Source: Escherichia coli
GTDB lineage: Bacteria > Pseudomonadota > Gammaproteobacteria > Enterobacterales > Enterobacteriaceae
Assembly: GCF_003018255.1 (NCBI RefSeq)
Contig: NZ_CP027440.1
Length of the DNA: 64,000 bases
Strand: one strand, 5' to 3'
Positions 26,901 to 29,900 of the stretch are shown piece after piece. Position 1 is the stretch's first letter, and each line of letters begins with the position of its first letter. The position numbers are program-made.

Positions 26901-29900
26901 ATAACCACCAGAAGCCCCGCCCAGCGCTTTACCAAGCGTACCGGTGATAATATCGACCCGCCCCATCACATCGCAGTATTCATGGGAACCACGACCGTTT
27001 TCACCGACAAAACCTACCGCGTGTGAGTCATCTACCATCACCAGGGCATCATATTTATCTGCCAGATCGCAAACGCCTTTCAGGTTGGCAATCACGCCGT
27101 CCATCGAGAACACACCATCGGTGGCAATCAGCACATGACGCGCACCGGCTTCACGCGCTTCTTTCAGACGTGCTTCCAGCTCCTGCATATCGTTGTTGGC
27201 ATAACGATAGCGTTTAGCTTTGCACAGACGCACACCATCAATAATAGACGCGTGGTTCAGTGCGTCGGAGATAATGGCGTCTTCCGCGCCCAACAGCGTT
27301 TCGAACAGGCCACCGTTAGCATCAAAGCAGGAAGAGTAGAGAATCGCATCTTCCATCCCCAGGAAGGCCGCCAGTTTTTGTTCAAGCTCTTTATGGCTGT
27401 CCTGAGTGCCGCAAATAAAACGCACCGAAGCCATGCCGAAACCGTGAGAATCCATTCCCGCCTTTGCCGCCGCAATCAGATCCGGATGATTCGCCAGTCC
27501 GAGATAGTTATTGGCACAAAAGTTAATGACGTGGCTTCCATCAGCCACAGTGATATCTGCTTGCTGCGCAGACGTAATAATGCGCTCTTCTTTAAACAAC
27601 CCTTCCGCCCGTGCGGTTTCCAGATCGTTGGTTAACTGCTGATAAAATTCTCCACGCATTGCGATTCTCCAGACAGGGCAAATTCCAGCACATATTACCC
27701 AAACTTATAGGTTGCGACGAGATGACGCGTTAACACTTCTGCAAAATTCAGGATAAATAACGTCCAGCCCCCTCACTTTTGGTGAATGGCTGAAGCCAAC
27801 GTCATGTAGTGATATGATAGAAGTATTCGTGTCTGAGATTGTCTCTGACTCCATAATTCGAAGGTTACAGTTATGATCATCGTTACCGGCGGCGCGGGCT
27901 TTATCGGAAGCAACATCGTTAAAGCCCTGAATGATAAAGGCATCACCGATATTCTGGTGGTGGACAACCTGAAAGACGGCACCAAGTTTGTGAACCTGGT
28001 GGATCTGGATATCGCGGACTATATGGATAAGGAAGACTTCCTGATCCAGATTATGGCTGGCGAAGAGTTCGGCGATGTCGAAGCGATTTTCCACGAAGGC
28101 GCGTGCTCTTCCACCACCGAGTGGGACGGCAAGTATATGATGGATAACAACTATCAATACTCCAAAGAGCTGCTGCACTACTGTCTGGAGCGCGAAATCC
28201 CGTTCCTGTATGCCTCTTCCGCAGCCACTTACGGTGGACGCACCTCCGACTTTATTGAATCCCGCGAATATGAAAAACCGTTGAATGTCTACGGTTACTC
28301 AAAATTCCTGTTTGATGAATATGTTCGCCAAATCCTGCCTGAAGCGAACTCACAGATTGTTGGCTTCCGTTATTTCAACGTTTATGGACCGCGTGAAGGC
28401 CATAAAGGCAGCATGGCGAGCGTCGCTTTCCATCTCAACACCCAGCTTAATAACGGTGAATCACCGAAGCTGTTCGAAGGTAGCGAGAACTTCAAACGTG
28501 ACTTCGTCTATGTGGGCGATGTGGCAGATGTAAACCTGTGGTTCCTGGAAAATGGCGTTTCCGGCATCTTCAACCTCGGTACTGGTCGTGCGGAATCCTT
28601 CCAGGCAGTAGCAGATGCTACGCTTGCTTATCACAAGAAAGGCCAAATCGAATACATTCCGTTCCCGGATAAACTGAAAGGCCGCTACCAGGCGTTCACG
28701 CAGGCAGATCTGACAAATCTGCGCGCGGCGGGTTACGACAAACCGTTTAAAACCGTTGCCGAAGGCGTAACGGAATACATGGCCTGGCTGAATCGTGACG
28801 CATAAGAGCTCTGCATGAAAATACTGGTGATCGGCCCGTCTTGGGTTGGCGACATGATGATGTCGCAAAGTCTCTATCGCACGCTCCAGGCGCGCTATCC
28901 CCAGGCGATAATCGACGTGATGGCACCGGCATGGTGCCGTCCATTATTATCGCGGATGCCGGAAGTTAACGAAGCTATTCCTATGCCTCTCGGTCACGGA
29001 GCGCTGGAAATCGGCGAACGCCGCAAACTGGGTCATAGCCTGCGCGAAAAACGTTACGACCGCGCCTACGTTTTACCCAACTCCTTCAAATCCGCATTAG
29101 TGCCTTTCTTCGCGGGTATTCCTCATCGCACCGGCTGGCGCGGCGAAATGCGCTACGGTTTACTCAACGATGTGCGTGTGCTGGATAAAGAAGCCTGGCC
29201 GCTGATGGTGGAACGCTATGTGGCGCTGGCCTATGACAAAGGTATTATGCGTACCGCACAAGATCTGCCGCAGCCATTGTTATGGCCGCAGTTGCAGGTG
29301 AGCGAAGGTGAAAAATCATATACCTGTAATCAATTTTCGCTTTCATCAGAACGTCCGATGATTGGTTTTTGCCCGGGTGCGGAGTTTGGTCCGGCAAAAC
29401 GCTGGCCACACTACCACTATGCGGAGCTGGCAAAGCAACTGATTGATGAAGGTTATCAGGTGGTTCTGTTTGGCTCGGCGAAAGATCATGAAGCGGGCAA
29501 TGAGATTCTTGCCGCTTTGAATACCGAGCAGCAGGCATGGTGTCGTAACCTGGCGGGGGAAACACAGCTTGATCAAGCGGTTATCCTGATTGCAGCCTGT
29601 AAAGCCATTGTTACTAACGATTCTGGCCTGATGCACGTTGCGGCGGCGCTCAATCGTCCGCTGGTTGCCCTGTATGGTCCGAGTAGCCCGGACTTCACAC
29701 CGCCGCTATCCCATAAAGCGCGCGTGATCCGCCTGATTACCGGCTATCACAAAGTGCGTAAAGGTGACGCTGCGGAGGGTTATCACCAGAGCTTGATCGA
29801 CATTACTCCCCAGCGCGTACTGGAAGAACTCAACGCGCTATTGTTACAAGAGGAAGCCTGACGGATGCGGGTTTTGATCGTTAAAACATCGTCGATGGGC

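Follow-up and report, generated by a model that had tools for sequence, protein, structure and literature searches.

In the E. coli strain studied here, the divergent genes kbl and hldD (rfaD) are separated by a short stretch of DNA without a gene, and the locus raises the question of whether something has been removed from this site or had never arrived there. The original prediction, made from the window alone (the window being the whole 64-kb stretch of DNA that was analyzed), was that only about 210 bp separate kbl and hldD, that K-12 carries htrL (yibB) between them, and that, if so, the present strain lacks this gene. Our comparison bears out each of these statements: the spacer is exactly 213 bp long, yibB is found between the same two genes in K-12 BW25113, and a tblastn search of the 64-kb window with K-12 YibB returned no homolog (best E = 3.5).

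Gene layout of the kbl-hldD locus

The open reading frames on either side of the spacer are full-length matches to NCBIfam equivalogs, with kbl scoring 746.7 bits against TIGR01822 and hldD scoring 677.5 bits against NF008360 (Table 1). The two genes are divergent neighbors, nothing interrupts the spacer between them, and a coding sequence of the HtrL_YibB family (PF09612) is absent both at the site and nearby, which together identify the window as carrying a yibB-negative, or short, allele. In JNE23-011, a RefSeq genome with 100% identity to this region, the annotated ends of kbl and hldD fall at the same positions and the spacer has no feature, and no Rfam family was matched at E <= 1 between positions 27300 and 28200. 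The 213 bp encode nothing new beyond the divergent control region that is expected between two such genes.

Table 1. Positions of genes, conserved blocks, and alignment segments in the window. L001 denotes the K-12 BW25113 locus.
Feature	Position	Strand	Description
kbl	26463..27659	-	Glycine C-acetyltransferase; first gene of the kbl-tdh operon; 398 aa; reads leftward (ORF list)
kbl-hldD spacer	27660..27872	.	Geneless; between divergent genes
kbl-proximal half of spacer	27660..27763	-	102/104 bases match K-12 L001 2801-2904 (pairwise alignment); four blocks conserved across genera
TTCTCCAGAC	27665-27674		Complement of the kbl Shine-Dalgarno GGAGAA, from conservation
GCACATATTACC	27688-27699		Complement has TAATAT, likely kbl -10, from conservation
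ACGAGATGACGC	27717-27728		Conserved block, kbl side
GGATAAATAACGT	27751-27763		Last conserved block on the kbl side
Least conserved stretch	27764-27782		Cassette sits exactly at its start
Empty cassette site	27764..27765	.	1220-bp yibB cassette here in K-12 and 1958 other genomes
hldD promoter-like stretch	27766..27823	+	Holds GGTGAATGGCTGAAG and TGATATGAT; homologous to K-12 L001 4125-4186, strongly diverged (38/57 aligned columns match)
GGTGAATGGCTGAAG	27781-27795		Conserved block, hldD side
TGATATGAT	27810-27818		Putative extended -10 of hldD; TG-n-TATGAT invariant in 26 sequences from many genera
hldD leader	27824..27872	+	Identical to K-12 L001 4187-4235 (49/49)
Leader hairpin	27831-27849	+	GTCTGAGA / TTG / TCTCTGAC; 7/8 pairs
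hldD Shine-Dalgarno	27860-27864		GAAGG
hldD (rfaD)	27873..28805	+	ADP-glyceromanno-heptose 6-epimerase; first gene of hldD-waaF-waaC; 310 aa (ORF list)
waaF	28815-29861	+	Start of the putative R1-type core cluster
waaC	29865-30845	+	Start of the putative R1-type core cluster
O-antigen ligase gene	30915-32168	-	Convergent; start of the putative R1-type core cluster

Comparison with K-12

In K-12, kbl, yibB (htrL), and hldD (rfaD) are the consecutive genes b3617-b3619, and the flanking genes and their orientation are the same as in the window. The difference lies in the gap between kbl and hldD, which is 1435 bp with yibB inside in BW25113 versus 213 bp in the window. K-12 yibB lies on the kbl strand and encodes 285 aa, named 'protein YibB' by NCBIfam and matching the Pfam family HtrL_YibB (PF09612) with 435.9 bits. 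A sequence search of the PDB for clues to YibB function returned no match better than E = 0.24. In the alignment of the two loci, the surplus of K-12 amounts to 1220 bases (L001 2905-4124), opposite an empty site of just 2 unaligned bases in the window.

This surplus, which we refer to as the yibB cassette, has a GC content of ~35% in K-12, compared with ~50% in its flanks. The yibB coding sequence within it is accompanied by a promoter-like TATACA-18-TATAAT and a terminator-like hairpin of 14 pairs, which makes the cassette a complete, self-contained expression unit. The yibB promoter of K-12 reported through genomic SELEX by Shimada et al. (PMC3946193) is the same as the one found here. The same study reported H-NS binding for the AT-rich spacer between yibB and hldD in K-12 (PMC3946193), DNA that is missing from the window. 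Moreover, the two loci differ beyond the cassette itself, as the ~60 bp that hold the hldD promoter-like elements are diverged in K-12 from the version in the window. No ops/JUMPStart element (GGCGGTAG) was found on reading the sequence upstream of K-12 yibB.

Distribution of the two alleles among E. coli

Both states of the locus are common. Among 5426 complete E. coli genomes, of which 5424 gave a match to either state, the uninterrupted short spacer was present in 3465 (64%) and the yibB cassette in 1959 (36%), and these two groups sum to all of the matched genomes. The original prediction had named the sharing of the short spacer by K-12 and other strains as the outcome that would count against it; this turned out to hold for other strains, as these frequencies show, and not for K-12. 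The short spacer is also found in the laboratory strains BL21/C41(DE3), W/KO11FL, Crooks (ATCC 8739), and C (C122), and one genome is 100% identical to the window across 4.5 kb. The cassette lies at one and the same chromosomal site in all 1959 genomes that carry it, with no more than 2 matching places in any genome and no plasmid copies. The variable presence of yibB/htrL had been recorded earlier in a pangenome study (PMC8303582), and the short spacer of the window is an ordinary state of this known accessory-gene polymorphism.

We also identified further variation in and around the locus. A second, diverged short-spacer allele occurs in ~484 of the short-type genomes at 91.5% identity to the window, as in strain 32-4 (L005 6301-7573), and an alignment of spacers places its kbl-side half closer to Citrobacter than to Escherichia. 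In strain 32-4, the annotation extends rfaD by 48 nt (to 981 nt), with an 80-bp gap separating it from rfaF. This allele probably represents a further imported haplotype, one linked to a core cluster that contains waaZ. In E. coli PKF8 (L004 4826-6048), an IS1 element stands where tdh, kbl, and the greater part of both waaH and the yibB cassette would be expected. Only the last 155 bp of the cassette remain, and threonine degradation via Tdh/Kbl should not be possible in this strain. In O157:H7 SS17 (L006 2796-3831), waaH is a frameshifted pseudogene by annotation.

Outgroups and the ancestral state

The state of the locus outside E. coli was read from 80 loci, found with HldD as the query in one genome per species and with kbl and yibB placed by tblastn; this set is without Salmonella and E. 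fergusonii. Among these loci, most Enterobacterales have kbl immediately upstream of hldD, the two genes being separated by 212-306 bp. The gap is 212-218 bp in E. albertii (213 bp), Citrobacter (214 bp), Enterobacter (215 bp), Kluyvera, Pluralibacter, Phytobacter, Cedecea, and others, and ~230-260 bp in Pantoea, Erwinia, Pectobacterium, Yersinia, Serratia, Rahnella, Photorhabdus, and Providencia. Nearly all outgroups in this set that retain kbl beside hldD are of the short-spacer type. The likeness extends beyond length, as the spacers of Enterobacteriaceae such as E. albertii, Citrobacter, and Enterobacter have the same divergent arrangement and the same conserved blocks as the window, and share with it the invariant TG-n-TATGAT and the leader hairpin, with point differences only.

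The junction at which K-12 carries the cassette was compared in the same way. The stretch of the window from 27766 to 27823 matches E. albertii at 52/54 positions, and the spacer runs collinear with those of E. albertii and Citrobacter through the insertion point without a scar. In the K-12 counterpart of this stretch, by comparison, the best matches are to yibB-positive Enterobacter sp. Ag1 (34/40) and to Pseudescherichia (32/36). The short spacers of the outgroups and the close match to E. albertii indicate that the window carries the native Escherichia allele, unscarred. We infer with considerable confidence that the short spacer is the ancestral as well as the majority state, and that the arrangement in K-12 is derived.

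Only 1 of the 80 outgroup loci, that of Enterobacter sp. Ag1 (L031 2562-4000), contains yibB. The gene occupies the same site in a gap of 1439 bp, and its product has 81% amino-acid identity to K-12 YibB. At the nucleotide level, the two yibB genes are ~75% identical, about as diverged as the flanking genes, which indicates that the cassette is old and that its history could include losses. The hldD leader of Ag1, in both its hairpin and its sequence, is E. coli-like and unlike that of its relative Cedecea, a likeness suggestive of a transfer between genera in which the hldD promoter and leader accompanied the cassette.

Given that the short spacer is held by the majority of E. coli and by the outgroups, the description of the present strain as lacking yibB is correct and should not be read as meaning that the gene was lost or that the strain is unusual. 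K-12 is not the reference state at the kbl-hldD locus, where yibB/htrL is an accessory gene, and annotators should regard its absence as the ancestral condition rather than flag it as a deletion.

Origin of the two spacer alleles

We consider it very probable that the spacer in the window is the original uninterrupted control region, in a strain that never received the yibB cassette. According to this reading, the 213 bp would be the divergent control region of kbl-tdh and hldD-waaF-waaC inherited from the common ancestor of the Enterobacteriaceae, with nothing removed, and the strain, with its putative R1-type LPS core, would simply hold the yibB-free allele. The derived state of K-12 and about a third of E. 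coli would have arisen when the 1220-bp low-GC cassette entered the least conserved stretch of the spacer, landing between the conserved blocks of the kbl side and those of the hldD side. Its arrival and spread most likely proceeded by homologous recombination through the conserved flanking genes, and, along with the cassette, the ~60 bp that hold the putative hldD promoter may have been replaced by a foreign version. The variable region of the waa locus is thought to move by homologous recombination that leaves no mobile-element remnants (PMC8715443), and a foreign tract of ~60 bp in combination with no mobile signature fits this published view. The argument from donor flanks for an imported tract in K-12 draws on only these ~60 bp of candidate imported DNA. 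With respect to physiology, the hldD promoter stretch of yibB-positive strains is of another haplotype and lies next to AT-rich DNA for which H-NS binding has been reported, and expression of the heptose pathway could differ slightly between the two allele classes.

Two other histories of the locus start from an ancestor that possessed yibB. In the case of secondary loss, the gene would have been removed later by deletion, or the spacer would have been replaced by a short allele through homologous recombination. Such a history would accord with the occurrence of both alleles within one core-type background (yibB is present in 139/1833 genomes that have the window's waaL type) and with the wide acceptance of recombination in the waa region (PMC8715443), and a real deletion is known here from PKF8, where tdh, kbl, part of waaH, and the bulk of yibB have been lost beside an IS1. 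We nevertheless regard it as unlikely, as the window retains no remnant or scar of the cassette, its junction is of the form seen in E. albertii and Citrobacter, and nearly all outgroups have the short form. Loss by allelic replacement is expected to leave the same picture as the one we observe, yet it would have restored the ancestral allele. A precise excision, with yibB as the cargo of a transposon or integrative element, would explain why a low-GC segment is present or absent as a unit. A repeat search, however, found no direct or inverted repeats bracketing the K-12 cassette other than short ones at chance level, so that the cassette does not resemble a mobile element; its 1220 bp contain no terminal inverted repeats, target-site duplication, or transposase or integrase gene, and no remnant marks the empty site. 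Together with its confinement to a single chromosomal site and its absence from plasmids, this makes excision of a mobile element highly improbable.

The same very low probability applies to an artefact, in which yibB would have been dropped by mis-assembly. The same spacer recurs in 3465 independent complete genomes, including the one that is identical to the window over 4.5 kb.

Conserved blocks and putative promoters

The anatomy of the spacer was resolved with an alignment of 19 Enterobacteriaceae spacers, from which the conserved blocks in Table 1 were taken. A consensus scan for sigma-70 promoters and terminators, with promoters scanned between 27560 and 27980, called no site in the spacer, so the putative promoter positions for kbl and hldD were assigned from conservation. 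For the mapped heat-shock promoter of rfaD, no coordinates were found in the open-access literature.

We also identified a short hairpin in the hldD leader, positioned just downstream of the conserved putative extended -10. In a MAFFT alignment of 26 sequences, compensatory (double) changes across the Enterobacteriaceae occur in 6 of the 7 hairpin pairs tested. Moreover, 85.7% of the cells in this alignment are paired, compared with ~50% or less when the partner strand is slid, and the observed covariation score was reached by none of 500 shuffles. Pantoea, Dickeya, Yersinia, Rahnella, and Serratia have hairpins of unrelated sequence at the corresponding position downstream of the -10. The stability of the E. 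coli hairpin is ordinary in comparison with shuffled sequence (z = 0.08), and the Rfam scan of 27300-28200 (E <= 1) gave no match to it. A candidate role for the hairpin would be, for example, to stabilize the 5' end of the mRNA.

Other occupants of the site

Genes other than yibB were found between kbl and hldD in two of the outgroup loci. In Citrobacter youngae CCUG 30791 (L077 2552-3703), the site holds a gene for a WaaB-like GT4 glycosyltransferase of 383 aa, which is unrelated to yibB and scores 383.4 bits against NF007396 (lipopolysaccharide 1,6-galactosyltransferase), narrowly below the cutoff of 385. In a Plesiomonas metagenome-assembled genome (MAG; L076 3227-3919), a gene for a TetR-family regulator lies in a gap of 1013 bp. 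The GT4 gene of C. youngae, yibB of Ag1, and the TetR gene of Plesiomonas are each a single extra gene on the kbl strand, in contrast to the window, which has no insert. The site appears to tolerate repeated insertions of single genes, and the presence of the GT4 gene in the place of yibB suggests that it is a recurrent slot for LPS accessory genes.

More speculatively, the gap between the kbl and hldD blocks might repeatedly serve as a docking point on the border of the waa cluster, at which single LPS-related genes (yibB in E. coli and Ag1, and GT4 in C. youngae) are exchanged between genera by recombination through the flanks, each import swapping the hldD promoter haplotype. The conserved leader hairpin of the Enterobacterales, which has no Rfam family, could in addition control the stability or translation of the hldD-waaFC mRNA. 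We offer this combined scheme tentatively, as a possibility that we judge to be rather less probable than its opposite.

Association with the LPS core type

The genes downstream of hldD allowed the LPS core type of the strain to be compared with its spacer allele. In the annotation of the genome that is 100% identical, the core cluster runs in the order waaL, GT2, GT8, rfaY (waaY), GT8, waaO, rfaP (waaP), waaG, and rfaQ (waaQ). The arrangement of an R1-type core, with waaL convergent to waaC and followed by a GT2 gene (waaV-like), GT8, waaY, GT8, waaO, waaP, waaG, and waaQ, is thus present, and the gene content points to an R1-like waa cluster in the window. The assignment to R1 rather than R4 follows from the GT2 family gene that adjoins waaL, which we take, from our own reading of published cluster maps, to be a marker of R1.

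The two alleles are distributed unevenly between core types, as counted with a query in which only genomes that have both the cassette and the window's waaL type pass 80% coverage. Among 1833 genomes with the window's R1-like waaL type, 139 (8%) carry yibB and 1694 (92%) have the short spacer. For the 3591 genomes with other waaL types, the corresponding numbers are 1820 (51%) and 1771 (49%), and the yibB-positive genomes of this group include K-12, O157:H7, and O104:H4. Carriage of yibB is strongly, though not strictly, associated with core type. A strict link to core type or to the orientation of waaL is ruled out by the 139 yibB-positive genomes with an R1-type waaL, and is contradicted as well by strains that combine a short spacer with a non-R1 core, such as SE15 and 32-4, the latter with its waaZ-containing cluster.
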